DNA from: Embleya scabrispora
GTDB taxonomy: Bacteria; Actinomycetota; Actinomycetes; Streptomycetales; Streptomycetaceae
Direction of reading: 5' to 3'
Assembly: GCF_002024165.1 (NCBI RefSeq)
Contig: NZ_MWQN01000001.1
Location: forward strand, 2,737,365-2,769,364
Length of the DNA: 32,000 nucleotides
Both the position numbers and the translations under genes were made by a program. This document shows, in pieces, positions 5,032 to 19,377 of this stretch. Position 1 is the first letter of the stretch. Every line of letters begins with the position of its first letter. Under the pieces are notes generated by a model. That model was not told the origin of the DNA. It worked only from the letters and a program-made list of their open reading frames with translations, and made no database searches.

Positions 5032-5670
5032 CTAGCCGATCGACGTGGCGGGTGTCCTCGTGGGCGTCGGGGGCGTGCTCGGGGTCGGGGTACCGGCCTT
5101 GTCCGCGTCGCGGGTGGAGTCCCACAGGTTGCGGTACCACGGCGGCGAGCTGGCCTGGGCCGGGGTGGGCGGCGCCGGGTCGCCCGTAATGCCGCCCGGC
5201 GGCACCACCAGGTAGGCGGTGTCGCCCGGGTAGACGAAGTGCAGGCGCTCGCGCGCCTGTTGCCGGACGTACGCCGGGTCGTTCCAGCGCTCCAGATCGG
5301 ACCGCATGCGCTCGGTCTCGGACTGCTGCTTGCGGGTGCTCTCGCGCAGGTCGGCCACGTCGGAGCGCTGCGCCAGGTATTGCCGCAGCGGATAGACGAG
5401 GGCGATCGCCAGGCTCAGCACCACCAGGGTCAGCACGATCCACTTGCCGCCGCCGCGCCGGCGCAGCCGACCCAGGCTCGCCGCCGCGGCCGAGTCCTTG
5501 AAGGACCCGGCCGCGGTCTTCGGCTTGGCGGGCTTCGGCCCGGCCGACCTCGACGGGGCCGATGCCGGGCGCGTACCGCGGGCCTGACGCGGCGGTGCGA
5601 CGGCTCGGGACGCGCGGGCGGCCCGAGTCGGCCCGGCCGTCCTGCGACCGCCCTCGCCCTGCTCGCTCAC
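5032..5670 (-). CDS. ftsB: Septum formation initiator family protein (FtsB/DivIC-like), with a basic Ala/Pro-rich N-terminus and a Pro/Thr-rich C-terminus
   Basis: A single TM segment (WIVLTLVVLSLAIALVYPL) is followed by a coiled coil (RQYLAQRSDVADLRESTRKQQSETERMRSDLERWNDPAYVRQQARERLHFV). The GTG at 5670 is preceded by GGGAGG. The longer track ORF overlaps eno and is rejected. Confidence 0.8.
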   Translation of the reverse strand: MSEQGEGGRRTAGPTRAARASRAVAPPRQARGTRPASAPSRSAGPKPAKPKTAAGSFKDSAAAASLGRLRRRGGGKWIVLTLVVLSLAIALVYPLRQYLAQRSDVADLRESTRKQQSETERMRSDLERWNDPAYVRQQARERLHFVYPGDTAYLVVPPGGITGDPAPPTPAQASSPPWYRNLWDSTRDADKAGTPTPSTPPTPTRTPATSIG

Positions 5671-5726
5671 GCGTCCTCCCGCCGTTGTGTCGATCCGGCG
5701 CCGGCGGTCCCCCGCCCGACCGGGTG

Positions 5727-7133
<1,407 letters not shown>

Positions 7134-7169: not shown

Positions 7170-7532
7170 ATGACCGAACCGGATCCGGGGGACATATCGC
7201 CGCTCGTGCGGGAGATCGGCCGGCTGCTCGCGGGCGAGGGCGACCCGCCGGCGCTGCTGAGCGCGCTGCTCGCGGCCCGGCTGTACTGCGAACGACCCGA
7301 GCGGGTCGGCTTCGCGGCGATCGGCCCGCCGGGTGGCGGGGTGGTCCCGGTGTTCACGTCGGAGGAGCAGTTGGCGCTGTTCGTCCGGGGCGGGTGCGAC
7401 TGGTTCGCCACCGAAGGCGCCGACCTGCTGCGGCTGTTGCCGCCCGGCTACGACATCGCCGTCGACCTGGCCGGCCCGCGACCGGTGCGGCTGCGGGCGA
7501 GTCTGTGGAACGCGGAGGCGGCGGATGGGTGA
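7170..7532 (+). CDS. SseB / SAV_915-like family protein (small cytoplasmic accessory protein)
   Basis: LLSALLAARLYCERPERVGFAAIGPPGGGVVPVFTSEEQLALF...DIAVDLAGPRPVRL matches the pattern of actinomycete SseB-like proteins. Its stop overlaps the next ATG (ATGGGTGA). Confidence 0.6.
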   Translation: MTEPDPGDISPLVREIGRLLAGEGDPPALLSALLAARLYCERPERVGFAAIGPPGGGVVPVFTSEEQLALFVRGGCDWFATEGADLLRLLPPGYDIAVDLAGPRPVRLRASLWNAEAADG

Positions 7533-7875
7533 CGACGGGTTCAGGGTCGACAGCGCCTTCGTGCGCGGGGCCGGTACGGAGCTGATCGAAGCGCTGACGG
7601 TGGCGCGGGAAATCGCCCAGAAGCAACAGCCGTTGCAGAAGCAGCTGGAAGCGCTGCAGAAGTACTACTCGTCACCGCTCCAGGCCGGCGAGATCGTGCT
7701 CGAAGCCGGCAAGGCGATGGCCGCGCTGGTCAACCTCGGCGAGAACATCGCGATCGCGCTGGAGATGGCCGCGCAGCAGTACGAAGCGGCCGAACGCGAC
7801 GCCAGGGCCCGGTTCTTCACGCCCGGCGGTGCGGCCTCGATCCACGCGGGCGACGACATGGGCACCACGAACTGA
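7525..7875 (+). CDS. Small (116 aa) all-helical protein, a candidate WXG100-like partner or targeting factor for the downstream toxin
   Basis: The ATG at 7525 overlaps the upstream stop. The sequence has heptad-like, helix-rich stretches (IEALTVAREIAQKQQPLQKQLEALQKYY ... ALVNLGENIAIALEMAAQQYEAAERDARARF). No canonical WxG motif is present. It ends 13 nt before the toxin start. Confidence 0.55.
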   Translation: MGDDGFRVDSAFVRGAGTELIEALTVAREIAQKQQPLQKQLEALQKYYSSPLQAGEIVLEAGKAMAALVNLGENIAIALEMAAQQYEAAERDARARFFTPGGAASIHAGDDMGTTN

Positions 7876-7888
7876 CGGAGGCCGCCCG

Positions 7889-8290
7889 GTGTTGACATCC
7901 GGCGAACCACTCACCCCCGACTCGCAGCCTCGCGGCCTGATACCGGGCGACTGGGAGGTGTTGCAGGCGGTCGCCGACATGCTGACCCGGTTCTCGGTGC
8001 AGGCGTTGGAGGCCAAGGGACGGCTCGGCAAGATCGAGGGCAAGGACCTCTGGCAGGGCGACGCGGCGGAGGGTTTTCGCAAGGACCTCGGGATCGTCAC
8101 CGAGATCCTGGGCCTGCACGGCAAGGAATACCCGAGCGTCGCCGCGAAGTTGCGCGAGTTCGCCGAGGTGTTGCGGTTCGCCCAGGGCGAGTGCGCGAAC
8201 GAGATCATCCCGAAGGCGAAGCAGGCGTTCTGGCTGATCGAGGCGCAGGCGCGCGAGCAGGAGTCGTACGACCTGGCCAAGCGCGATCAG
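7889..8290 (+). other. N-terminal helical WXG-like secretion domain of the Rhs toxin
   Basis: A WxG motif (LWQGD, W at 8051-8053) is embedded in long predicted helices, followed by FAEVLRFAQGECANEIIPKAKQAFWLIEAQAREQE. The domain boundary is approximate. Confidence 0.5.
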
Positions 8291-11200
8291 GATGTGCAGA
8301 AGGCCAACGGCGTCGGCAAGGAGTGCCTGCCCTCGTTGCCGCACAAGCCCGAGGGCCACCCGGGCGCGGACATGTTGCGCGAGGCGCAGGAGCAGTTGAA
8401 GCGGGTGCGCGAGCGGGTGGAAAGGGCCGACGCGCACGCGCTGTTGGAACTGCGCAAGTCCCGTGGCGTTCTCGACCTCGACCCGGACATATGGAAGACG
8501 CTCCGCCAGGCCGGGATCGATTTCGCCAAGGGCGCCGGCAGTGGAGTCTTCGAGCTCGCGAGCTTCGCGTGGACGATCGACCCGGCTCGGACCTTCGTCG
8601 ACCCGATCGCGTACGCCACCGATCTCAAGGGCATCGCGGGCGGCATGCTCGGCATCGCCCGGGACCCGGTGGGGTTCGCCCAGGACACGGTCGTCTCCTC
8701 GTGGGAGGACTTCAAGAAGAACCCGGCCCGCTGGCTCGGCCACGTGGCGCCCGACCTGGCCCTGACGCTGGCGACGCGCGGCGGCAACAAGGCGCTGACG
8801 CCCGCCGAGCAGGTCGAGAAGAACATCGCCAAGCGGGACAACCCGCGCTGCCGGGCCGCGGAGGCGTGCACACGCGAGGGCGAGCCGATCGACGTGGTCA
8901 CCGGCGAGATGGTGCTGCCGCAGACCGACGTGACGCTGCCGGGCGCGCTGCCGTTGGTGCTGGAGCGGCACCACCGGACGGCGTTCGGCGGGGGCCGGTT
9001 CTTCGGCGAGCGGTGGGCGTCGACGTTCGACCAGTGCCTGCGTCTGGGCGCGGACCGGGTCACGTTCACGGCCGCCGACGGGATGACGCTGCGCTACCCG
9101 GTGCCGAGGCCGGGCGAGCCGGTGCTGCCGATGGGCGGATATCGGTGGCCCCTGGCGTGGGACGGCGCCGGGAGCTTCACGGTCACCGACCCGCGGCGGG
9201 GGTGGACGTGGTCCTTCGCGGCCCTGCCGGGTGCGGCCTCGCGGCGAATACCGGTGCGAGCGCTGACGGATCGCAACGCCAACCGCGTCGAGTACGCCTA
9301 CGACGCGGAGGGCGTGCCGCGCGAGGTCACCCACTCGGGCGGCTACCGGGTGGCGGTCGACTCGGCGGCGAGCCTGGTCACGGGCCTGCGCCTCCTCGAC
9401 ACGGACCCCGTCACCCACGCGAGCACGTACGACCCGGCGGCCTCCGTCGACCTCGTCACCTTCACCCACGACGACGCCGGCAACCTCACCGAAGTCGTCA
9501 ACTCCTCCGGCCGCCCCCTGCGCTTCACCTACGACACCGACCACCGCATGACGTCCTGGACCGACCGCAACGGCACCTGGTACCAGTACGAGTACGACGA
9601 GGCGGGCCGCTGCGTACGCGGCTCCGGCATCGACGGCATCCTGGACAACACCTTCGCCTACGACGAGGCATCCCGGACCACCAGGATGACCGACGCGTTG
9701 GGCGCCGTCCGAACCTACGAATACAACGACTGGTCCCAGGTCATCCGCGAAACCGACCCGGCAGGCGGCACCCGCCACACCGAATGGGACTCCTACAACC
9801 GCCGAGTCGCAATCACCGACGAACTCGGCCACACCACGAGGTACACCTACGACGCGGCCGGCAACACCACCGGCGTAATCCTCCCCAACGGCACCTTCAC
9901 AGTCGCCGACCACGACCCCACCCTGTGCCGCCCGACCAGAATCACCGGCTTGGACGGCGGAGTCCGCAGCCACACCTACGACACCCGCGCCAACCTCCTC
10001 ACCACCACCGACGAACTCGGCGCCATCACATCCCACACCTACAACGAGGCCGGCCACCTCACAACCATCACCAACGCTTTGGGCCACACCACAACGGTCA
10101 CCCCCAACCCGGCCGGCCTCCCGATCGCGGTAACCGACCCACTCGGCGCCACCACGAAGCTCACCCGCAACGCCTTCGGCCGCCCCACCACGCTGACCGA
10201 CCCCATGGGCCACACCACCAAAACAACCTGGACGGTGGAAGGCCAACCAGCACGGCGCGAACGCCCAGACGGCACGATCGAATTTTGGACCTGGGACGGC
10301 GAGGGCAACCTCCGACACCACGTCAACCCAGCAGGCTTCACCACGTCCTACGAGTCGACGCACTTCGACTTGCCGGCGGCCCGAACCGGACCCGACGGCG
10401 CAAGGTTGGAATTCACCTACGACGCCGAACTCCGCCTCACCGAAGTCACCAACCCACAGGGTCGCACCTGGCGCTACGCCTACGACTCGGTAGGCCGCCT
10501 CGCCGCCGAGACGGACTTCAACGGTCGAGAATTGACCTACCATTACGATGCAGCCGGCCGGTTGATCCGACACAGGAACGGCGCGGGAGAGATCATCGCG
10601 TACACCCGCGACGCCACCGGCTGGGTCACTTCGCAGCGCCACGACGCAACCCAGTATGAAACGATTTACCACTTCGACGCCGCCGGCCGCCTGATCCGGG
10701 CTATCGCTCCGGAAGCGGATCTGATCCTCACGTATGACGCCCTTGGTCGTATCACGGCCGAGACTACCAACGGCCGTACGTTGTCCAACGCGTACGATGC
10801 GGCGGGAAACCGTATTCGCCGGACAACCCCCGCCGGCCACGTCACCGAATGGACCTACGATCCTTCGGGCCGCCCGACGGCCTTACATATTGCTGGAAAT
10901 AGGCTCGAATTTACCTTCGATCCCGCCGGGCGCGAAACAATCCGTCGTTTCGGAGACCGGGTAACCTTCGCTCAAGAGTGGAACGAGACTCATCACCTCA
11001 TCTCCCGGACAACCTGCGTCGGAGATCCGGCCGGCAGGATCGCTGCTTCCTTGGACCCGGACCTCGGCGTCATCGAACGTTCTCGTCAGAATTACACCTT
11101 CCGGGCCGACGGCTTCGTCACGTCGATCGACGAACCGAACATCGGCCTCAAGACGTATGACCTGAACGAGGTGGGCCGCGTCACCGCCGTTCGCGCGCAT

Positions 11201-12322
11201 GGTTGGACGGAACGCTATGCGTACGACCGGGCCGGAAATCAACTTCATGCCGACTGGCCCGAATCCGAAAGCGCCGGAGGCGGGCGGGAAGTCGTCGGAA
11301 CCCTGATCCGTCGCGCCGGCCGTATCCGCTATAAATATGACGAACAAGGGCGCATAATCCAACGGACACAAAAGACCCTGTCCGGAAAATCCAAGTCCTG
11401 GATCTACGCCTGGGGTCCGGAGGATCGACTGACGAGCGTCGTCACGCCGGACGGCATCACCTGGCAATACATCTATGATGCGCTGGCCCGCCGGATAGCC
11501 AAGCAACAATTGACGCCCAGCGGCACCGTTGCGACTGAAGTGCTCTTTTCCTGGGACAACTCATTCTTGGCAGAGCAGGATACGCCGGAGGACGCAACGA
11601 CCACCTGGGAGTACGAATCCGGGGATAATCACCGTCCACTCCTGCAGGTCGACACTTCTGTAGGAGAGGAAGGAAAAAACGTGTGCTGCCTCGCAATCGT
11701 GTGTGCCCTCGACGGAACTCCCGTCGAACTCATCGACACCGAAGGGGCAGTTGCCTGGCATTCCCGGCATACGCTGTGGGGTGCGAGGATTGCGGCCACT
11801 CCCGGAGACTTGGACTGCCCACTCGGTTTTCCGGGACAGTACCGCGATTCGGAGTCTCAAATATTCCATAGTGTTTTTCGACAATATGATCCAATCCTTG
11901 CTCAATTTTGCAGCCCCGACCCTTTGGGTATCGAAGCGTCACCCAACCATCACGCCTACGTTATAAACCCTGTCGCGTGGTCCGATCCGCTCGGACTGGC
12001 CCCCCAGGGCGCCAAGGATCCCATAAGTCTCGGTCCGGGATTCACGGCAAGAATTGATGTATTTCCCATGGGGTTGGGGACCGACTTCGAAATCCATGTC
12101 TACAAGGGCGGCGTCGACTACGGTGTCTACGGCAGCACTGGGTGGTTCGCCAAGCATGGCCACGGAACGGACATCGAAGTCCCCGCCGCGATCGAAAATT
12201 CATTGAGGGGGATGGCTATCGAAATGCTCCGCAGGACCAATAGATTGGGTCCACGCGGAACCGAAGACATCTCGGGCGATAATTGGCATCGCCCGAGGCT
12301 GACGGGCGGAGGATGTAAATGA
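7889..12322 (+). CDS. Rhs/YD-repeat polymorphic toxin with a WXG-type (T7SS-style) N-terminal domain and an unassigned C-terminal toxin tip
   Basis: The GTG at 7889 has GGAGG 7 nt upstream. The N-terminus is LIPGDWEVLQAVADML...DLWQGDAAEGFRKDL. A DUF6531-like segment follows (CTREGEPIDVVTGEMVLPQTDVTLPG). There are many YD repeats (YTYDAAGNTTGV, YAYDSVGRLAAETDFNGRELTYHYDAAGRLI, and others). The Rhs core ends RQYDPILAQFCSPDPLGIEASPNHHAYVINPVAWSDPLGL. Confidence 0.95.
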   Translation: MLTSGEPLTPDSQPRGLIPGDWEVLQAVADMLTRFSVQALEAKGRLGKIEGKDLWQGDAAEGFRKDLGIVTEILGLHGKEYPSVAAKLREFAEVLRFAQGECANEIIPKAKQAFWLIEAQAREQESYDLAKRDQDVQKANGVGKECLPSLPHKPEGHPGADMLREAQEQLKRVRERVERADAHALLELRKSRGVLDLDPDIWKTLRQAGIDFAKGAGSGVFELASFAWTIDPARTFVDPIAYATDLKGIAGGMLGIARDPVGFAQDTVVSSWEDFKKNPARWLGHVAPDLALTLATRGGNKALTPAEQVEKNIAKRDNPRCRAAEACTREGEPIDVVTGEMVLPQTDVTLPGALPLVLERHHRTAFGGGRFFGERWASTFDQCLRLGADRVTFTAADGMTLRYPVPRPGEPVLPMGGYRWPLAWDGAGSFTVTDPRRGWTWSFAALPGAASRRIPVRALTDRNANRVEYAYDAEGVPREVTHSGGYRVAVDSAASLVTGLRLLDTDPVTHASTYDPAASVDLVTFTHDDAGNLTEVVNSSGRPLRFTYDTDHRMTSWTDRNGTWYQYEYDEAGRCVRGSGIDGILDNTFAYDEASRTTRMTDALGAVRTYEYNDWSQVIRETDPAGGTRHTEWDSYNRRVAITDELGHTTRYTYDAAGNTTGVILPNGTFTVADHDPTLCRPTRITGLDGGVRSHTYDTRANLLTTTDELGAITSHTYNEAGHLTTITNALGHTTTVTPNPAGLPIAVTDPLGATTKLTRNAFGRPTTLTDPMGHTTKTTWTVEGQPARRERPDGTIEFWTWDGEGNLRHHVNPAGFTTSYESTHFDLPAARTGPDGARLEFTYDAELRLTEVTNPQGRTWRYAYDSVGRLAAETDFNGRELTYHYDAAGRLIRHRNGAGEIIAYTRDATGWVTSQRHDATQYETIYHFDAAGRLIRAIAPEADLILTYDALGRITAETTNGRTLSNAYDAAGNRIRRTTPAGHVTEWTYDPSGRPTALHIAGNRLEFTFDPAGRETIRRFGDRVTFAQEWNETHHLISRTTCVGDPAGRIAASLDPDLGVIERSRQNYTFRADGFVTSIDEPNIGLKTYDLNEVGRVTAVRAHGWTERYAYDRAGNQLHADWPESESAGGGREVVGTLIRRAGRIRYKYDEQGRIIQRTQKTLSGKSKSWIYAWGPEDRLTSVVTPDGITWQYIYDALARRIAKQQLTPSGTVATEVLFSWDNSFLAEQDTPEDATTTWEYESGDNHRPLLQVDTSVGEEGKNVCCLAIVCALDGTPVELIDTEGAVAWHSRHTLWGARIAATPGDLDCPLGFPGQYRDSESQIFHSVFRQYDPILAQFCSPDPLGIEASPNHHAYVINPVAWSDPLGLAPQGAKDPISLGPGFTARIDVFPMGLGTDFEIHVYKGGVDYGVYGSTGWFAKHGHGTDIEVPAAIENSLRGMAIEMLRRTNRLGPRGTEDISGDNWHRPRLTGGGCK
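11999..12319 (+). other. 107-aa C-terminal toxin tip downstream of the DPLGL cleavage motif (family not recognised)
   Basis: The sequence after DPLGL (D at 11984) is APQGAKDPISLGPGFTARIDVFPMGLGTDFEIHVYKGGVDYGVYGSTGWFAKHGHGTDIEVPAAIENSLRGMAIEMLRRTNRLGPRGTEDISGDNWHRPRLTGGGCK. I could not match it to a named toxin fold by eye. Confidence 0.6.
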
Positions 12323-12783
12323 AATTCATCGAGATCGAATGGCGGGACGACATTCGAGGATTTTGGCTGGACCCTCGGTCATATCTTGGTGAATTGCCGA
12401 AAATGAGTTCGCAACTTCCCCAGGGAGCCCGAGGATTCGCCACCGATCCGGGGCACTACGATTTCAGCAGCCCCAGATGCGTGAAGGATTTGGGGTTCGA
12501 AACCCTTGTAACCCCATCGGACAGTCGACAGGGTCTCGAGATCCTTTTCTCGCCCAATCCATGGAAGCACGAGGAAGCGCTTCGTATCCGATATGACGGC
12601 GTCGAAAGCCTGTCTGTGGATTGGGAAAGTCAAGCCGCGGGCGGCGGCGTCAAAGATTCCCTGCTGCTCGATGAAATCCTGCCCGCCGATGCGGGGTGCC
12701 GGCACGAGATCGCCCTCACCGGCGCAACCATCCTGATCGCGTGCGCCGACCTGACCGCATCGTGGGAGCCTCACAACCCATAA
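12319..12783 (+). CDS. Candidate cognate immunity protein (154 aa, unassigned family)
   Basis: Its ATG overlaps the toxin stop (ATGA at 12319-12322). It shares the low-G+C composition of the toxin 3' end. It has no signal peptide or TM segment. A bipartite beta-rich pattern (RIRYDGVESLSVDW ... HEIALTGATILIACADLTASWE) is reminiscent of small Imm families, but this is not verified. Confidence 0.7.
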   Translation: MKFIEIEWRDDIRGFWLDPRSYLGELPKMSSQLPQGARGFATDPGHYDFSSPRCVKDLGFETLVTPSDSRQGLEILFSPNPWKHEEALRIRYDGVESLSVDWESQAAGGGVKDSLLLDEILPADAGCRHEIALTGATILIACADLTASWEPHNP

Positions 12784-12896
12784 GACAACGAACCGGCATT
12801 TTTTGTGGAGCCGGCGGCTGTAGGCACCCTGAAATGCGCGGCGGCCTCGGGTCGCCAGGGTTTCGGGGTGGTCGACGACGATGGTGGGGTGGGGCT

Positions 12897-13586
12897 GTGC
12901 GGTGGGAGTTCGCGGTCCGGGGGACTGCGGAGGTGTACGCGTTTTCGGGTGGGATCGTGGACGAGATGGTGCGGGCGTTCGCGGTTTCGGAGGAGGAGGC
13001 GTTTCTCCGAGTGGATCGGCACATGCGGCCCTACCGTTGGGATTTCACGGAGGAGGGCGACCGCCGGTTCCTGTTCGAGTACTCCGAGGAACACTGGGCC
13101 GGCGAGATCTACCTGGAGTCGGATCCGTGGCTGCAACGGTCGGCTGACGATCACAGCCGGTCGCGGCCTCGGCCGATGCCCGAGGCCGGGGATCCGGAGT
13201 TCGGGGGCTTGGCGCTGGGGGACGATCTCGCGCCTGTCGAGATGTTCGTGACGTGGGACGGCGAGCTCGACGACTTCGCGTCCATCGTGGCCGGATCGCG
13301 GCAGAGCACGGGTGGGCGTGCCGCGCGGATCGAGAACGAGCGTGTGGTGATCTCCATCATCGATGAGTTGCACGACACCGAGTCCGACCGGGGATATGTG
13401 TCGATGACGTGCCGGCCGAAGCACGGCACATCCTGGGCGGACCTGTCCGAGGATTTGCGGGCGATCGTCTACCGGCTGCACGCTGCGGGATTGCAGTACT
13501 CGCGGGTGACCGTGGCCGATGCCGGCGGACCACTCAGGATTCTCCGACGGGATCGACGCACGTTCCATATGTTGCGGAGGGCGTGA
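12897..13586 (+). CDS. Hypothetical protein (about 229 aa; start ambiguous among ATG 12834, GTG 12897 and a downstream in-frame ATG at the MVRAF position)
   Basis: High third-position G+C holds across the frame. The sequence is acidic and non-repetitive (EEAFLRVDRHMRPYRWDFTEEGDRRFLFEYSEEHWAGEIYLESDPW...). The C-terminal ~80 aa are paralogous to the ORF at 13534..13914. Confidence 0.55.
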   Translation: MRWEFAVRGTAEVYAFSGGIVDEMVRAFAVSEEEAFLRVDRHMRPYRWDFTEEGDRRFLFEYSEEHWAGEIYLESDPWLQRSADDHSRSRPRPMPEAGDPEFGGLALGDDLAPVEMFVTWDGELDDFASIVAGSRQSTGGRAARIENERVVISIIDELHDTESDRGYVSMTCRPKHGTSWADLSEDLRAIVYRLHAAGLQYSRVTVADAGGPLRILRRDRRTFHMLRRA

Positions 13587-13914
13587 GGTCGGGTTCGGCC
13601 GTCGGGTCGCCGAACTCGATGCTCATCCGAGTCGCGCCTGCCTCCTGTAGGCGCCAGGCCATACGGCGTACGTCCCGCAGGGCCTCCTGCCACGAAACTC
13701 CTGCACGGGGCGTGCAGATCAGCGCCCACATCGGAATCGCCTCGGGGTCGTCGGGGGCCGGCTCCGGCAGGCGGGCGATCCGGACGTCGACGGCGGCGAG
13801 TTCGATCGCGTCGGCTTCGGATGAGGGGGCGCCGCCGGATCGTGTGCAATGGGCCGTGCCCGCAAGAGGGTTGCCGTGAGGACGTCCGCCTCCACCACCC
13901 ACGCGACCAGGCAC
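13534..13914 (-). CDS. Hypothetical small protein, paralogous to the C-terminal domain of 12897..13586 (possibly degenerate at its 5' end)
   Basis: IPMWALICTPRAGVSWQEALRDVRRMAWRLQEAGATRMSIEFGDP aligns by eye with YVSMTCRPKHGTSWADLSEDLRAIVYRLHAAGLQYSRVTVADAGGP. Third-position G+C is good only from about codon 30 onward. The start is a GTG at 13914, and the 3' end overlaps the convergent gene by 53 nt. Confidence 0.35.
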   Translation of the reverse strand: MPGRVGGGGGRPHGNPLAGTAHCTRSGGAPSSEADAIELAAVDVRIARLPEPAPDDPEAIPMWALICTPRAGVSWQEALRDVRRMAWRLQEAGATRMSIEFGDPTAEPDLTPSATYGTCVDPVGES

Positions 13915-13927
13915 ACCAGCGCCGTCC

Positions 13928-14323
13928 TCAGTCGCCGATCACCTCGCGGACCAGTTGCGGATCGACGGGCTCGGCTGCCGCCTCGGGAGCGAACTCGGCT
14001 CGCTCGATCACCTCCGCGAGCCGATCGCGGTCCTCCCACCCGTCGGCGATTGCCGAGGCCCACTGATTGGCGCTTGCGCGGCGAAGGAAGCGGGCGGCGT
14101 GTTCCCGCGGCATTCCGGCCACGGCGTCGAGCAGCGTCGACACCACCCAGCGGAACGCGTCACCGGCATACCAGTGGTGGCTGTCGGCCAGCTCTCGAAC
14201 CACCTCCGTAAGCGCCTCGCACACTTCGTCGTCGCCGGTCACCGTGGGCCCTTGTCCAACCGGAACCCGCCCACGCGGCAAGAGGCCCGCGTCGATCAGC
14301 GAGGCCGCGACGTGCATCGCCAT
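13928..14323 (-). CDS. Hypothetical protein (131 aa)
   Basis: The ATG at 14323 (MAMHVAASLIDAG...) begins a non-repetitive acidic helical sequence (CEALTEVVRELADSHHWYAGDAFRWVVSTLLDAV...WEDRDRLAEVIERAEF). It overlaps the upstream gene by 28 nt. The 5' part of the track ORF is an Arg-rich artefact. Confidence 0.5.
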   Translation of the reverse strand: MAMHVAASLIDAGLLPRGRVPVGQGPTVTGDDEVCEALTEVVRELADSHHWYAGDAFRWVVSTLLDAVAGMPREHAARFLRRASANQWASAIADGWEDRDRLAEVIERAEFAPEAAAEPVDPQLVREVIGD

Positions 14324-14790
14324 CGGTCCTCTACGGCGAAGCAGAACTCGGTGTGCGACTCGCGTCCGGCCGGGGGCTCGTATGGAGCGGGCACCACGTA
14401 CACCCGGACGGCGTCGCGGTCGGGGACGAAGCCGATCTTCGCCAACCAACTACGGGTGCCGGGCTCGCCAAGCCACCTCGGATTCAGATGCGAGACGTCG
14501 ACTCCCGGCTGGGTGTCGTCGAGCCCTGCGGCGACAAGCACCATGATGTACGGCTCGGATTGGGCGATGCGCTCGACGATCTCCTCTTCCGGGAGATCGG
14601 TCCACTCCATGAGCGTTTCGAGTGCCTCGGATTCGGGGTTTCGCGCGACGAAGGCGGCAAACATGACCACGTCGCCTGCGGTACGCATATTGCGCCCCCG
14701 CGACGGAACCGCACGAAACCGACCGGGATCCGCATCCACCGCCATCGTCGGCCCGTGCGACACATCAGTCCCTATGAGTTCGCCAGACAT
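14296..14790 (-). CDS. Hypothetical protein (164 aa)
   Basis: The ATG at 14790 (MSGELIGTD...) begins a good coding-like sequence (VVMFAAFVARNPESEALETLMEWTDLPEEEIVERIAQSEPYIMVLVAAGLDD...). The upstream 113 codons of the track ORF run through a repeat copy and are rejected. Confidence 0.55.
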   Translation of the reverse strand: MSGELIGTDVSHGPTMAVDADPGRFRAVPSRGRNMRTAGDVVMFAAFVARNPESEALETLMEWTDLPEEEIVERIAQSEPYIMVLVAAGLDDTQPGVDVSHLNPRWLGEPGTRSWLAKIGFVPDRDAVRVYVVPAPYEPPAGRESHTEFCFAVEDRWRCTSRPR

Positions 14791-14890
14791 GCTGCGACAG
14801 TATCCGGCGCGTAAATCACCAGGTCCCGGAGGCGAATCGCTCACGGTGGCGGTGGCGCCGGCGGTGGGCGGGGGCCTCTTGACATCGGCG

Positions 14891-15076
14891 CTTCGGTTGC
14901 GGGGTGCCGGTGCGGCGTTGATCCGGCCCGAGAGGCGGGCGGCACCCGGCGTTTCAGGGCTGCGAGACTCGAAGTCCGCGACGATACGGACGTATTGCTC
15001 GGCGAGAACCGGCCGGCAACGGAGCAGCGCACAAGGGGTTCGGTCGGGTTCCCGAAGAGCCTTCCCGAGCAGGTCG
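14891..15076 (+). repeat. Diverged copy (D) of the ~210-bp intergenic repeat family
   Basis: GGTTGCGGGGTGCCGGTGCGGCGTTGATCCGG...CCGGCGTTTCAGGGCT...GTATTGCTCGGCGAGAACCGGCCGGCAACGG...GGTCGGGTT...CCTTCCCGAGCAGGTCG is colinear with copies A and B at 16749-17170 and in the same orientation. Confidence 0.6.
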
Positions 15077-15180
15077 CGCGGGGAGTTTTCGAACCGGCGG
15101 CTCCATTCACATGGAAACAACCCGAACAAGTGACCGAGGGGGCTAGGGTTTGACGACCATCATCTCCGAGGAGGTAGGAA

Positions 15181-15531
15181 GTGTTTAGAGAACTAATCGT
15201 CCCATCGGATGATGATTTCCTTACCCACCTGGGCGTTACTCTGGAATCCTTGGAGCCCCACGGCACTCGGCAATTGATGTGGGAGCCATCGTCCGGCGCC
15301 AGTATCGCATTCTCCTTCTATATCCCGGGGCGCTCGGTTCGTCTGATCTGGCGTGAACAGGGGAGAGTCGTCGCCGATGTGTTTCGGGAGGGAGCCACGC
15401 AGATCTCACTGAAATCCGACAAACAGGAAGCCCATATGTGGATTCAATTTTTCATGGATTCACTAAACGGGGAACTGAAGGTTTGGCTCTACCCGAAGAT
15501 TCGACTACAGGATCGGATATTACTGACCTGA
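15181..15531 (+). CDS. Hypothetical small protein (116 aa), first gene of the low-G+C cassette
   Basis: A GTG start sits 6 nt after a strong GAGGAGG. The region is visibly A/T-richer than its flanks. There is an in-frame TTA codon at 15520-15522. No family was recognised. Confidence 0.6.
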   Translation: MFRELIVPSDDDFLTHLGVTLESLEPHGTRQLMWEPSSGASIAFSFYIPGRSVRLIWREQGRVVADVFREGATQISLKSDKQEAHMWIQFFMDSLNGELKVWLYPKIRLQDRILLT

Positions 15532-15605
15532 AGAAAACTTTCGCGTCACAGGTCATTCCGTCGACGTTTTTCGATCGAGATCTTTTAATCAGAGAGGTTT
15601 CCGGG

Positions 15606-16067
15606 ATGAGCGCGATCGTTGAGTTGTGGAAAAGACAGTCTCTTCCAATTTATGACGGCCTTTACTATGCAAATGGTCGATCATACGATCTGGCTCAAGA
15701 CCCGTCTTCGCCGAGTGGAGTCACGATGGGGCAGGCTTTCGACCTCGATTCCCTACTCCGGACTGCACCGGATCGGGTCACGAGCATCGATGTGACCAGA
15801 GTGGAGCAGATCAGCGAAGCGGAAGGCTATCTGTGCTGCGGCGAAGGTTCTTATGGTTCAGAAGGATTCTTCGCCAAAACCGACAGCGCCAAGCAACTGC
15901 TGTGGGTTGTGTATCTGGAAAACTCCAACCCCTTTCACGAAATCGAGATTCGGGAAGGCATGGCAATTTTCCGATCCACCTCCGGTACATGTATCACTGC
16001 CCCAATATATCTCTTAGGTTCGGGGCATGTTGGTCCCCGCCTCGATCCGAACCATCCACATGCCTGA
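15606..16067 (+). CDS. Hypothetical protein (153 aa), low-G+C cassette
   Basis: The ATG at 15606 (MSAIVELWKRQ...) contains GYLCCGEGSYGSEGFFAKTD and WVVYLENSNPFHEIEIREG. There is an in-frame TTA at 16014-16016. The start could lie further upstream in the same frame. Confidence 0.5.
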   Translation: MSAIVELWKRQSLPIYDGLYYANGRSYDLAQDPSSPSGVTMGQAFDLDSLLRTAPDRVTSIDVTRVEQISEAEGYLCCGEGSYGSEGFFAKTDSAKQLLWVVYLENSNPFHEIEIREGMAIFRSTSGTCITAPIYLLGSGHVGPRLDPNHPHA

Positions 16068-16077
16068 AAACCCGGGG

Positions 16078-16596
16078 ATGATCACAATGGATCCCTCGAA
16101 TGCTCACATATCTGCCCTGGAACCACATGGCAGTCGTGGCTATGGGGACACGCCGCTGGGGAGCAAGAGAGATCGGTTGATCGGGGCCTTCGTGGATCTT
16201 GTTGCAGGCCACGATGATTTGACCTATGCGATCGAAGTCGGACGGCAGAGCAGGCGGTGGGATGCTCTCGACACCTACGCCGCTCGGATGGCGTCGATCG
16301 CCGTTCGGGAACGTGACTCCGACATGCTTCGGCGAGGGCTGGTCGCGGCACTGATCGCCATGAAATCGACCGACGATGAACGTGAGGCCCTCCCGACCCT
16401 GAGTCTCCTCTACCGGGCGTGGGAAATTCTGGACGATCGGGGCTTGTGTTTTCGGGCGCCGCGCGATCTGCAAGTCCGAGAAGAGGATGATCCTTTCGTC
16501 GCCTTCGCTCGGCGCTCCCCCGATGACCGGGGAATCCGAGCAATGGGCTACCGCGAAGGGAGCGACTCCGAAGGGTTTCGATTCCTTGATCAATGA
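16078..16596 (+). CDS. Hypothetical protein (172 aa), low-G+C cassette
   Basis: Start is the ATG at 16078, or the ATG at 16060, which overlaps the previous stop. The sequence is helical and non-repetitive (DRLIGAFVDLVAGHDDLTYAIEVGRQSRRWDALDTYAARMASIAVRERDSDMLRRGLVAALIAM...). No family was recognised. Confidence 0.5.
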   Translation: MITMDPSNAHISALEPHGSRGYGDTPLGSKRDRLIGAFVDLVAGHDDLTYAIEVGRQSRRWDALDTYAARMASIAVRERDSDMLRRGLVAALIAMKSTDDEREALPTLSLLYRAWEILDDRGLCFRAPRDLQVREEDDPFVAFARRSPDDRGIRAMGYREGSDSEGFRFLDQ

Positions 16597-16748
16597 CTCG
16601 GCGGAGATGAGCGTCCGGGGTCGTGGGCGCCATTTGTTCCGCTCCGCGGCCGACCCCAACGCCCTCTCGTCGCGCCGCCGACCGGCAGTGGTTGTTTGTT
16701 GTCCTCCGGGCTGATCTGGCCTGTCCTGGCCTTCCCGCGTAGCCGGCC

Positions 16749-17170
16749 GTTTCCGGCGCGTGGTGCCGTTGCGTCTCGGGTTGCGGGGGGCCGGTGCGGG
16801 GTTGGTCCGAGTCGGTGATGGGCCGCCGCCGGCGTTCGGGGCTCCGAGGCTCCGGGCTCCCGACGGGACGAGCGTCTTGCTCGGCGAAAACCGGCTGGCG
16901 ACGGTGGGCGGAGAGGCGGTCGGGTCGAGTTCGCCGGCCGGCCTTTCCGAGTGGGTCGGCTGTTTCCGGCTCGCGTTGCTCTGTGAGTCTCGCGGGTGCC
17001 TGATGCGGGGCCGGTCCGAGTCGATGGTGGGCCGCCGCCGGCGTTCGGGGCTCCAAGACTCCGGGCTCCCGACGAAGCAGGTGTGTTGCTCGGCGAAAAC
17101 CGGCTGGCAGCGGCGGGGTGGGAGGTGGTGGGGTCGAGTTCGCCGGGGGGCTTTCCGAGTGGGCTGGGGC
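16749..17170 (+). repeat. Two tandem copies (A 16749-16961, B 16962-17170) of a ~210-bp G+C-rich intergenic repeat
   Basis: Both units begin GTTTCCGGC. Both contain GGTCCGAGTCG(G/A)TG(A/G)TGGGCCGCCGCCGGCGTTCGGGGCTCC...CTCCGGGCTCCCGACG...TTGCTCGGCGAAAACCGGCTGGC...GGGTCGAGTTCGCCGG...CTTTCCGAGTGGG. A third unit starts (GTTTGGGG at 17171) but does not continue. Confidence 0.85.
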
Positions 17171-17499
17171 GTTTGGGGAGGGGTTGGGATTCGGGACCGG
17201 ATCTCGGCGGTGGTTGTGGGCTTCGAACTTGGGTGACCTGTGGTTTTGGGTGGGCGGGGTGGGGAGTTGGGCGTCGAGGGCCGGTTTCGAGTGCTTCGGG
17301 CACTGCGGCCGCTCGGAGGCCGTGGAGGGGACCGCAAGTGCCCAGTGGGGGCGGAAACCGGATCTCGAGGCGCCTCAAACGCGCCGATTTTGGGCTGACC
17401 TGCGGTTTTCTCTCACACCGAGGCCACGGCAGCCCACGCCGTCCGGTTTCGTGAACTCTCGCCCCTCACGCACGCTGACCGCACTTCAAAATGCCCTGC

Positions 17500-17706
17500 C
17501 CGGCCCACTCGGGAAGGCTCTCCGGCGGGCCCGACCGCACCGCCCTCCCTGCCCGCCGCTGCCGGCCGGTTTTCGCCGGGCAAGACGCCCGTCTCGTCGG
17601 GAGTTTGGAGTCTTGGAGCCCCGAACGCCGGCGGCGGCCCATCACCGACTCGGATCAGCCTCGCACCGGCCACCCGCAACCCAAGACGCTGCGCCCGCCG
17701 GAAAAG
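17500..17706 (-). repeat. Inverted copy (C) of the same ~210-bp repeat
   Basis: The reverse complement of 17500-17706 reads CTTTTCCGGCGGG...GGGTTGCGGGTGGCCGGTGCGAGGCTGATCCGAGTCGGTGATGGGCCGCCGCCGGCGTTCGGGGCTCCAAGACTCC...GTCTTGCCCGGCGAAAACCGGCCGGCAGCGG...CCTTCCCGAGTGGGCCGG. This is colinear with copies A and B. Confidence 0.85.
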
Positions 17707-17846
17707 CGGTCGAGGTGCCCGGGTGGGGACTTCGGGGGGACGTGGTGGGGACGGGGAGGGGCGGATTGGGGTTTTGGCGTGATCGTGGGCATATCGGCGG
17801 TAGCGTGGCCGGTATTGGTCCATGCAGCCCTCGGGGGTGGCACGTC

Positions 17847-18914
17847 ATGACGGCGAAACCCGGCAATCCGGCGCTTGTTCGCGCCCGATACGCGCATGGG
17901 TGGATTGCGCAGCGGCATCTCTCGGCCGCCTTTCGGGAGTGTGCGGCGGGGTTGGGGCTGCGGTTGGACGTGAGTGCGCGGCAGGTTCGACGCTGGGAGT
18001 CGGCGAATCCGCCTTGGCCGACGCCCGATTACGTACGGGTGCTGGAGAGTATGTTCGGCGTGCCGCTGGATCGGCTGGGGTTCGTCCGCCCGGCGCACCT
18101 GGTCGATGTGGATCCGGACGGCTACGACGAAGGTCGGGCCTTTCATGAACTCCGAGGTGGCGAACAACCTGGCTGGTGGCGCTCCGAGTCCGACGAGATC
18201 GCGGCGAACGCCCACTATGCGCGACTGGTGGAGGCAGAGCAGTCCGCGGTGGCAGTGCGGTCGTATCTACCCACCCTGCTGCCTGGGCTGTTGCAAACCT
18301 TCGAATACGCCTTCGCCGTGATCAGGGCCAGTTCGCCGACCCTGACACAGGACGACGTGTTGCGCCGTACGAAGCGCCGCGTGGAACGACTCGGGTACGT
18401 CGGCAAGTGCTCGCCTGTGGGACGCTCCTTGTGGTTCATCGTCCACGATTCGGCGCTGCGCAATCCGGTCGGTGGATGGCATGCGCTCGCCGATCAACTC
18501 GGCCACATACTGGTCGTCCTTTCGCAGCGACCCGATGTAAGTCTCCAGGTGCTTCCCGATGATGTGGGCGCACATCCGGGGCTCAACTCCGGGCCATTCA
18601 CCTGGTATGACTTCGGGCGCGAACGTGTCGTCTATTTGGAAGATCTCACCGGCCGCTCTTGGACGTCACGTCCAACCTGTCTAGCGACCTACTCCCTGGC
18701 CTACGATCACCTGCAAGCGGCTGCCCTGACGGTGGACGAGTCCATCGAACTCATCGCGAAGAGGGCCCGGGAAGCGGAGATGAAGGCGTGGACCACAGGG
18801 ACAGGCCGGCTCGGTGGAGGGTCAGCAGCCACAGCGGACACGAAGACTGCGTCGCCGTCGCCCACTTCGGACACATCGGAGTCCGAGATTCCAAGGTCGC
18901 CGACGGACCGATAG
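17847..18914 (+). CDS. Helix-turn-helix (XRE-type) regulator with a DUF5753-like C-terminal domain (WhiJ/Scr1-type paralogue family)
   Basis: The ATG at 17847 is followed by an N-terminal HTH-like segment (LDVSARQVRRWESANPPWPTPDYVRVLESMFGVPLDRLGF). The central and C-terminal region (YARLVEAEQSAVAVRSYLPTLLPGLLQTFEYA...SLWFIVHDSALRNPVGG...LQVLP...GPFTWYDF) is typical of DUF5753 partners of DUF397 genes. The first 243 codons of the track ORF cover repeats and are rejected. Confidence 0.8.
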   Translation: MTAKPGNPALVRARYAHGWIAQRHLSAAFRECAAGLGLRLDVSARQVRRWESANPPWPTPDYVRVLESMFGVPLDRLGFVRPAHLVDVDPDGYDEGRAFHELRGGEQPGWWRSESDEIAANAHYARLVEAEQSAVAVRSYLPTLLPGLLQTFEYAFAVIRASSPTLTQDDVLRRTKRRVERLGYVGKCSPVGRSLWFIVHDSALRNPVGGWHALADQLGHILVVLSQRPDVSLQVLPDDVGAHPGLNSGPFTWYDFGRERVVYLEDLTGRSWTSRPTCLATYSLAYDHLQAAALTVDESIELIAKRAREAEMKAWTTGTGRLGGGSAATADTKTASPSPTSDTSESEIPRSPTDR

Positions 18915-18970
18915 TCACCCTGTCCCCGGCCGCGTGGCGTGCGCTCCTCTACGGAGTCCGTCCGCGCTGA
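18788..18970 (+). CDS. DUF397 domain-containing protein
   Basis: ARWRVSSHSGHEDCVAVAHFGHIGVRDSKVADGPIVTLSPAAWRALLYGV matches the DUF397 hallmark W-R-K-S-S-x-S...C-V-E-V-A...V-R-D-S-K...F/L...W..F. The GTG at 18788 has GGAG upstream. The gene overlaps the XRE gene tail out of frame. Confidence 0.8.
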   Translation: MDHRDRPARWRVSSHSGHEDCVAVAHFGHIGVRDSKVADGPIVTLSPAAWRALLYGVRPR

Positions 18971-19377
18971 TTGGGGACCTCTCGCCGCGAGCCGCGTATC
19001 CGCCGGAAGCAACTCGGCCCATGGCCGACTGAGTTAGCCATGCGCAACCGCCAAACCCCCGCATCCACACGGTTACACGGGCGGACCCGAACTCGCCCGG
19101 TATCCCGCGGGACCGTAGGGCCTGTGTAACACCCGCCATCGAGGTCCGCCGTGACGGCCCCCACCAGGGCAAACGTGGTGTTGGAGCGGCGCCGAACAGG
19201 GTGTGTCGGCTCTTTATGGTTCTCCTACGTGACCATGTCACCGGTCTGTGACAGCGCCGTCGTGGGTCGACGACTCCCGTATCGCCCCGGTGTTCGAGCT
19301 CGCCATAGTGATCGAGCAAGCACCGCGGGGCCTCGCCGGCTCCGGGCTTCGATCAACGGACACCAAGGGGACGTTCA

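Follow-up and report, generated by a model that had tools for sequence, protein, structure and literature searches.

PT7, a 78-amino-acid (aa) LXG-associated toxin of Bacillus cereus, and its immunity protein PIM7 (bioRxiv 10.1101/2021.10.19.465003; PDB 8owu) form the described system that comes closest to the gene pair considered here. PT7 is a non-specific endo-DNase that carries bound Mg2+, is sensitive to ethylenediaminetetraacetic acid (EDTA) and has no tRNase activity, and each of the substitutions D37A, H47A and H73A abolishes its toxicity; the family has been reported in Firmicutes and Proteobacteria (bioRxiv 10.1101/2021.10.19.465003). Classes of RNase toxins have likewise been listed (Zhang et al. 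2012, PMC3482391). Here, we consider a 32,000-nucleotide (nt) stretch of the Embleya scabrispora genome (contig NZ_MWQN01000001.1; the window), in which the 107-aa C-terminal tip of an Rhs protein is followed directly by an overlapping gene for a 154-aa acidic protein. Genetic linkage across genomes indicates that the tip and the 154-aa protein are, very probably, a toxin and its immunity protein. In architecture, this is an ordinary polymorphic Rhs toxin locus; the novelty lies in its cargo and antidote, which belong to two families missing from Pfam, NCBIfam and the PDB.

Results

The tip and its downstream gene form an uncatalogued pair

The two features at the centre of this analysis are:

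11999-12319 (stop codon 12320-12322), + strand: toxin tip, 107 aa, opening at codon GCC 11999 and comprising everything after the core end WSDPLGL
12319-12783, + strand: 154-aa acidic immunity candidate, whose ATG overlaps the toxin TGA (ATGA)

A first-pass annotation of the window had given both features at these positions, all of which proved exact when the open reading frames (ORFs) were re-read, and the start/stop coupling that it described is borne out by the overlap of the ATG at 12319 with the TGA at 12320-12322. It had also left both products unassigned, and no curated family was found for the window proteins, for 44 tips or for 19 immunity homologues. Neither the window tip nor the 154-aa protein had a match in Pfam or NCBIfam at E<=1, or in PHROGs or PADLOC at E<=0.1, and Pfam searches with the 44 diverse tips and 19 immunity homologues returned isolated single-member noise only (best E 0.018). 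Sequence searches of the PDB with single proteins and family profiles gave no match for either protein, tblastn against plasmids gave none, and a full-text literature search on the motif strings of the family returned no paper. In their source records, family members bear generic names such as 'RHS repeat-associated protein' and 'hypothetical protein', and the 154-aa ORF is identical to B4N89_12065 of Embleya scabrispora at NCBI.

The tip family is nonetheless sizeable. An exhaustive phmmer search of 1.84 billion cluster representatives recovered 161 representatives at E<=1e-3, 79 of them at E<=1e-10, mainly from Actinomycetota, with further members in Bacteroidota, one Melainabacteria metagenome-assembled genome (MAG) and unclassified metagenome contigs. 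The first-pass annotation had raised the questions of whether the tip occurs on other scaffolds and whether its partner is constant. The tip domain is always C-terminal or nearly so, and the modules that precede it are diverse: Rhs cores (DPxGL), PT-HINT domains ending VLVHN and DUF637/PT-TG-like 'GKFANGA' modules, besides N-termini of giant teneurin-like/RTX proteins and of membrane-anchored actinobacterial proteins without a known domain.

The partner is constant. An 11-sequence tip profile, run against one genome per GTDB species, gave 59 loci, in which the tip follows an Rhs core (31), a PT-HINT domain (12) or another N-terminus (5), or is a truncated remnant (11). An immunity-family gene lies 0-40 nt past the tip on the same strand in 59 of 59 loci, including those of Cellulophaga, Flavobacterium and the Melainabacteria MAG. 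Each of the 11 truncated tips adjoins such a gene, which is intact in all except L062, where it is frameshifted. Both of the two divergent, C-terminally extended tips on metagenome contigs (L072 and L073) have distant immunity-family members downstream of them (E about 1e-5, about 115 residues). The gene also comes directly after the tip of the E. hyalina Rhs protein, of a JGI Rhs fragment and of a 418-aa metagenome PT-HINT protein (tip 61% identical, immunity neighbour 55%), and loci L007 and L010 likewise carry it downstream of a tip or tip remnant. Orphan immunity homologues without a nearby tip occur at seven further loci (L001-L005, L008 and L009). Such a combination, in which a modular toxin invariably has its partner gene behind it, while some copies of that gene stand alone and others survive beside decayed toxins, is the standard genomic signature of a polymorphic toxin/immunity pair.

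A word-indexed protein search returned 19 homologues of the 154-aa protein, and at least 79 members of the immunity family were sampled overall. The protein is acidic, with an isoelectric point (pI) of 4.7, and its N-terminus has no hydrophobic stretch, in agreement with the cytoplasmic location proposed by the first-pass annotation; together, these properties imply that the toxin has a cytoplasmic target. Its structural model has a predicted local distance difference test score (pLDDT) of 87.5.

Several loci show further arrangements of the immunity gene. In L010 (4025-4830), a tip remnant that retains a HINT C-terminus (TVPVLVHN) and an intact immunity gene lie beside a RepSA replication gene and a PIN/antitoxin pair, apparently as an orphan cassette on an integrative or plasmid-like element. 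In L035 (Streptomyces sp. NRRL B-2790), tandem immunity genes (5327-5779 and 5973-6419) stand behind one Rhs tip. On a contig of JGI metagenome 3300071325, a 107-aa ORF and a DUF4279 protein come after an Rhs tip and immunity homologue. Because DUF4279 is the PIM9 immunity family of Nachmias et al. (bioRxiv 10.1101/2021.10.19.465003), this unit is probably a second, orphan toxin/immunity cassette in the array.

Conserved residues, selection and model of the tip

An alignment of 44 tips has six invariant residues (D20, E31, H33, G42, K52 and H53) and ten near-invariant ones (V34, E40, G45, G48, G54, P62, G71, R78, G87 and I91). To judge from this alignment, the invariant residues are polar and catalytic in type. 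The first-pass annotation had singled out the His and Lys residues of a KHGHG motif as candidates; K52-H53(-G54) is conserved across the family, and the second His is not. Short tips, including those of the actinobacterial and Bacteroidota genome loci, typically end in RPRLxGGGC, and, among family members P0020-P0169, 51 of the 62 with short tails have a Cys within the last six residues, here Cys106 (12314-12316). Many other tips, including those of L072 and L073, add a hydrophobic, often Cys-containing tail of 30-90 aa.

Comparison with the orthologous locus of E. hyalina adds a view of selection. The tip differs from its counterpart at 30 synonymous codons and 1 non-synonymous codon, the 154-aa ORF at 33 and 20, and the Rhs body at 185 and 154, respectively, which marks the tip as the most constrained part of the rhs gene. 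These codon differences show that the tip is under strong purifying selection and, together with the many homologues, that both the tip and the 154-aa ORF are coding beyond chance. The toxin tip has thus stayed fixed between E. scabrispora and E. hyalina (1 aa change), while its immunity protein has drifted or diversified (20).

An AlphaFold model of the tip, with the 44-sequence alignment as input (pLDDT 86; predicted template-modelling score 0.79), opens with a five-strand beta-meander (residues 9-50). K52-H53 then lie in a loop, after which come a helix (63-79) and an extended C-terminal segment that is well ordered. The model matches the beta-then-helix pattern that the first-pass annotation had read from the sequence. 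A Foldseek search with this model gave no significant neighbour in the PDB (best E 0.36; noise-level matches to double-stranded RNA-binding domains, dsRBDs) or in BFVD (best E 0.098).

A number of named families were considered and set aside. An HNH/His-Me finger, a beta-beta-alpha-metal motif whose catalytic His ends the first strand of the hairpin, is rejected on model topology, in which K52-H53 comes after the last strand (48-50) with a 9-residue loop before the helix, and no HNH-type Pfam model matches; a PD-(D/E)xK reading is rejected on model topology as well. Ntox22, Ntox29 and the other motif-similar entries of Zhang et al. 2012 (PMC3482391) are excluded in that their Pfam models match no tip. 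PT5 of Nachmias et al. was considered for its matching taxonomic range and is excluded by its structural neighbours, which are all-alpha.

Comparison with PT7 and PIM7

The immunity protein provides the clearest link to a described system. In a structure search of 350,542 PDB chains, the top two neighbours of its model were the PIM7 chains 8owu_E and 8owu_D (E 4.3e-4 and 1.5e-3, respectively; probability 1.00). For 8owu_E, the template-modelling (TM) score is 0.45 normalised to the query and 0.58 normalised to the target, and over both chains it is 0.58-0.60 normalised to PIM7. The third neighbour, an uncharacterised Neisseria protein (5v77), has an E of 0.027, and the remainder is noise.

For the toxins, parts of PT7 were rebuilt from the published mutagenesis primers, the PT7 family was retrieved with them, and diverse PT7/PIM7 pairs were collected from metagenomes. 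The tip and PT7 align colinearly, at sub-threshold significance, as follows:

tip LGxGY: PT7 LPxGW
tip without counterpart: PT7 18-residue hairpin
tip R18-x-D20: PT7 R35-I-D37
tip E31-I-H33-V-Y: PT7 H47-V-H49-L-Y
tip GxEVGxxG: PT7 GNPLDxNG
tip K52-H53: PT7 K68-(SPDA)-H73

In this register, which comes from a weak alignment, the PT7 residues that are essential for toxicity all pair with invariant tip residues: D37 with D20, H47 with E31 (a change from His to Glu) and H73 with H53. PT7 H49 pairs with H33. A hidden Markov model (HMM) of the tip scores 7-8 bits on one PT7 subgroup, a score reached by 3-15 of 5000 shuffles. Across a background of 8722 ORFs, in which all the Rhs bodies were included, no domain exceeds 5.0 bits, which speaks against a YD-repeat artefact as the source of the score.

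Both families are short C-terminal polymorphic-toxin domains that are absent from Pfam, have a cytoplasmic immunity gene directly downstream and show a link to T7SS-type delivery (T7SS, type VII secretion system), PT7 being borne by LXG proteins. They differ in taxonomic range, which is Firmicutes and Proteobacteria for PT7 and mainly Actinomycetota, with some Bacteroidota, for the tip family. The immunity protein here has 154 aa against the 117 aa of PIM7, with an added N-terminal hairpin and two helices. The tip and its immunity protein are at most a very divergent, differently elaborated branch of PT7/PIM7.

Two observations concern the wider PT7 family. In L085, the ORF at 187-480, which lies upstream of a PT7 homologue, includes NTHNDIEVYDKNGNHLG and scores 6.4 bits with the tip profile; the same loose superfamily may thus have a further member here. 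In addition, a set of metagenome PT7-like ORFs (L120-L126, L129 and L130) keep the C-terminal KSPDAHIP and lack the equivalents of D37 and H47/H49 (e.g. ...AVRVMPGD...PYVRWQRNG...), indicating that the PT7 family is heterogeneous in the proposed catalytic residues.

The Rhs scaffold and the operon

The tip is encoded within a translationally coupled four-gene operon on the + strand, made up of the genes for an SseB-like protein, a 115-aa helical protein and the Rhs toxin, and the 154-aa ORF. The features upstream of the tip are:

7170-7532, + strand: SseB-like protein, 120 aa, first gene of the operon (Pfam PF07179 SseB, E 1.4e-5, 25.7 bits, cut-off 21)
7525-7875, + strand: 115-aa helical protein, with only faint WXG100/EspC matches (E 0.48 and 0.72) and a position conserved in E. 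hyalina
7889-12322, + strand: Rhs polymorphic toxin, 1477 aa (start GTG 7889, GGAGG at 7877-7881, TGA at 12320-12322)
about 7910-8455, + strand: T7SS_signal domain of the Rhs protein (Pfam PF21725, E 1.7e-9, 38.3 bits, cut-off 27)
about 8879-9097, + strand: DUF6531 of the Rhs protein (Pfam, E 9.8e-22)
between DUF6531 and the core, + strand: YD/RHS repeat shell (PF05593 RHS_repeat, E 1.7e-83 over 18 stretches; TIGR01643, 2.5e-82)
11774-11998, + strand: Rhs-associated core (TIGR03696 Rhs_assc_core, E 3.5e-17, residues 1316-1390), ending DPLGI-x17-DPLGL
10500-12783: block of lowered GC content at third codon positions (GC3), spanning the last Rhs repeats, core, tip and immunity gene (GC3 0.57-0.78 vs 0.83-0.99 upstream)

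The core residue numbers (1316-1390) refer to a 1497-aa ORF, and the tip residues (1371-1477) to the 1477-aa protein. GTG 7889 is the likely start, which gives 1477 aa, the same length as the E. hyalina orthologue. The locus lies in the same synteny in E. hyalina, where 7681-8465 of L006 is the counterpart of window 11999-12783. The SseB-like gene is also found upstream of the Rhs gene in that species, and its stop overlaps the start of the next gene by 8 nt; its product is a candidate secretion chaperone or targeting factor. The 115-aa helical protein is a candidate WXG100-like partner of the Rhs N-terminal domain, a role suggested by its position and faint matches.

Given its T7SS_signal domain and the SseB-like and small helical genes upstream, the Rhs protein is probably exported by the ESX/type VII pathway with the help of targeting partners, in parallel to LXG-type operons. 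To judge from other Rhs toxins, the YD shell would encapsulate the tip and the DPLGL core motif would allow its autoproteolytic release, and from established knowledge of Rhs cores the DPLGL core end is the predicted release site of the tip.

Base composition was followed as GC3 in frame in 300-nt bins, together with a GC profile of the window. The first-pass annotation had noted an atypical composition shared by the tip and the downstream ORF. The anomaly is real, and it reaches further than stated: GC3 falls from about 0.9 to 0.57-0.69 from about 10500 inside rhs through the immunity gene. The low-GC3 block is a probable recombined or acquired 3' cassette. Past the immunity gene, about 6.5 kb (12784-19300) contains no ORF with the high GC3 that marks coding sequence in the flanks. 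At 15.5-16 kb of the window, GC is as low as 0.51, and the sole Pfam match among the ORFs of 12784-19300 is a DUF5753 regulator (17118-18914). The Rhs operon and this segment resemble a low-GC island between the housekeeping genes eno/DUF501 (4.3-7.0 kb) and ispE/ksgA/ABC-F (27.8-31.6 kb).

A proposed mechanism and the evidence against it

We propose that the Rhs protein would be exported by the ESX/type VII pathway via its N-terminal T7SS-signal domain, that its YD-repeat shell would enclose the 107-aa tip until release at the core motif DPLGL|A, and that the freed tip would act as an enzyme in the cytoplasm of the target cell. D20, E31-x-H33 and K52-H53, with R18 and R78, would most likely form a metal-dependent nuclease site, and the tip may be a distant relative of the Mg2+-dependent DNase PT7. 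The acidic 154-aa protein would bind the tip and occlude its active site, protecting the producer as well as bystanders with orphan copies. We infer toxicity, nuclease chemistry and neutralisation by binding, as we do the export route and cleavage, and we put the probability of this reading as a whole, in which a T7SS-exported Rhs toxin bears a metal-dependent nuclease tip, perhaps distantly related to PT7, that is neutralised by the 154-aa protein, at about 0.5. Its parts differ in strength. That the tip is a nuclease of some kind, as the first-pass annotation had guessed, is reasonably likely, with indirect support from the likeness of the immunity model to PIM7 and from the motifs that the tip has in common with PT7. 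A PT7-like metal-dependent DNase is the leading hypothesis for it, held tentatively at slightly short of even odds.

A number of results weigh against this reading. No sequence or profile similarity was detected between the immunity protein and PIM7 (hhalign P 0.3 against 2 PIM7; P 0.47 for 79 immunity against 34 PIM7 sequences), so the fold link could be convergence. The first-pass annotation had named a confident profile hit to a described family as the result that would speak against a new pair; for the tip and PT7, hhalign gives a probability of 2-3% (P 0.014-0.022), which is below accepted thresholds and is no such confident hit. On the PT7 reference, the tip HMM scores 1.2 bits only, a value reached by 540 of 5000 shuffles, and the PT7 HMM does match YD-repeat-like segments, so that caution on the PT7 similarity is warranted. 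The PT7 toxin chain of 8owu was not among the 50 best Foldseek PDB hits of the tip model, and the tip was not found to share the fold of PT7. The C-terminal KSPDAHIP signature, invariant in PT7 homologues, is absent from the tip, which has K52-H53-G without the SPDA insert and continues for 50 more residues; PT7, by comparison, has an extra N-terminal hairpin, ends in KSPDAHIPYKK and is without a counterpart of tip helix 63-79 and the ordered C-terminal segment. The pI of the tip is neutral (7.1), which is atypical of DNA-binding toxins. Lastly, there are no ESX core genes in the 32-kb window, which otherwise holds housekeeping genes.

Alternative explanations

The main rival keeps the toxin/immunity pair and makes the tip a metal-independent RNase acting on tRNA, rRNA or mRNA, in which E31/H33 and K52/H53 would provide acid-base catalysis and R18/R78 would hold the phosphate, as in barnase/RNase T1, colicin E3 and BECR-type toxins. 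The tip carries invariant E, H, K and H and near-invariant Arg residues on a single-helix fold with an antiparallel sheet, a set of residues known from small metal-independent RNases. RNases are also the commonest class among polymorphic toxin tips of about 100 aa, and an acidic, cytoplasmic immunity protein fits them too. Against this, no Pfam RNase toxin family (Ntox, Tox-Barnase, colicin, EndoU, RelE etc.) matches any of the 44 tips at E<=1, the Foldseek search brought up noise-level dsRBD matches and no PDB RNase, and invariant D20, which pairs with E31/H33 across neighbouring strands, is more suggestive of a metal site. Moreover, the sole described relatives hinted at, PT7/PIM7, are a DNase system that lacks tRNase activity. 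We therefore consider an RNase unlikely, if far from negligible.

Less probable still is an enzyme that does not hydrolyse nucleic acids, such as one that degrades nucleotides or cofactors, modifies small molecules or proteins, or cleaves peptides, with an unseen fold that uses the D/E/H/K/H cluster and perhaps the C-terminal Cys as a ligand or nucleophile. A confident tip model (pLDDT 86) with no significant neighbour in the PDB or BFVD would suit such an enzyme, as would the neutral pI and the C-terminal Cys of most short-tailed members, which no nuclease model explains. However, a domain of about 95 residues could hardly house a cofactor-binding site, and both the shared motifs and the fold of the immunity protein point to a DNase system. 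PT7, moreover, has no such Cys, and many long-tailed members have longer, Cys-containing tails in its place. In its boldest form, the tip would found a new enzyme fold, with an activity other than simple hydrolysis of nucleic acids and delivered between actinomycetes by a type VII-exported Rhs cage, and its likeness to PT7/PIM7 would be convergent; this we regard as a long shot. Finally, the two products might be no toxin/immunity pair at all, the tail being a structural plug or anchor of the Rhs shell and the downstream protein a chaperone or secretion adaptor, which would also fit a downstream gene that is always co-transcribed. Yet the tail cannot be a plug of the Rhs shell given that it is also found after PT-HINT and DUF637/PT-TG-like modules and on non-Rhs proteins, and its invariant residues are catalytic in type. 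In addition, the fold of the downstream protein is also that of PIM7, whose immunity function is proven, and the downstream gene is kept alone and beside decayed tips, which is not how a chaperone would be retained. We consider this last explanation barely credible.

Discussion

Our analysis provides coordinates, alignments and candidate catalytic residues for a toxin domain and an immunity family that had no name and are widespread in soil actinomycetes, and it thereby removes two 'hypothetical proteins' from many Streptomyces genomes. D20, E31, H33, K52, H53, R78 and C106 are candidate residues for mutagenesis. The first-pass annotation had proposed a new family pair; the families are indeed unnamed, and the claim of novelty may need softening to a divergent, unnamed branch of a PT7-like superfamily. 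If the link to PT7 is true, a recently described 'novel-fold' DNase of Firmicutes and Proteobacteria would turn out to be part of a much larger superfamily whose C-terminal elaboration differs, and the 154-aa protein would offer a second, very divergent immunity branch for studying the evolution of specificity. The locus also supplies a concrete case of an Rhs toxin that appears to use the actinobacterial type VII pathway for its delivery, which had been predicted and has received little study. The current understanding of polymorphic toxins is not overturned by any of this. A published toxicity assay may bear on the family, as the 231-aa Streptomyces atratus protein GGT34515.1, an Rhs core with an unannotated C-terminus, failed validation in E. 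coli (Nachmias et al. Table S3); this protein could carry the present tip.

Among other known systems, the locus is close in plan to the Rhs/YD-repeat toxins with nuclease tips, examples of which are the Rhs DNase effectors of Serratia and Dickeya (for the class, see Zhang et al. 2012, PMC3482391). In common with them it has RHS repeats, a DPxGL core and a variable tip, as well as an immunity gene that overlaps the toxin gene, orphan cassettes and a 3' end at which the composition breaks. The best-studied Rhs effectors are PAAR/VgrG-associated, type VI effectors of Gram-negatives, whereas the protein described here has an actinobacterial T7SS_signal and DUF6531 N-terminus with SseB-like and helical partner genes, and its tip belongs to none of the named Tox/Ntox families. 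A residue pattern reminiscent of PD-(D/E)xK (Tox-REase) enzymes is present, in that D20 is followed, 11-13 residues on, by E31-I-H33 on the next antiparallel strand, resembling the established D...(D/E)xK arrangement. However, a His takes the place of the Lys, the model lacks an N-terminal helix and alpha/beta sandwich, and neither a Tox-REase Pfam match nor a PDB neighbour of the restriction-endonuclease fold was found. With the LXG/WXG toxins of the T7SS (EsaD-EsaG and Tel; actinobacterial AaEAS, PMC12691689), the locus has a common operon logic of helical partner genes, N-terminal secretion domain, C-terminal toxin and immunity gene. It differs from them in that a YD-repeat shell of about 1100 aa separates the secretion domain from the toxin and in that the secretion domain is T7SS_signal (PF21725) rather than LXG.

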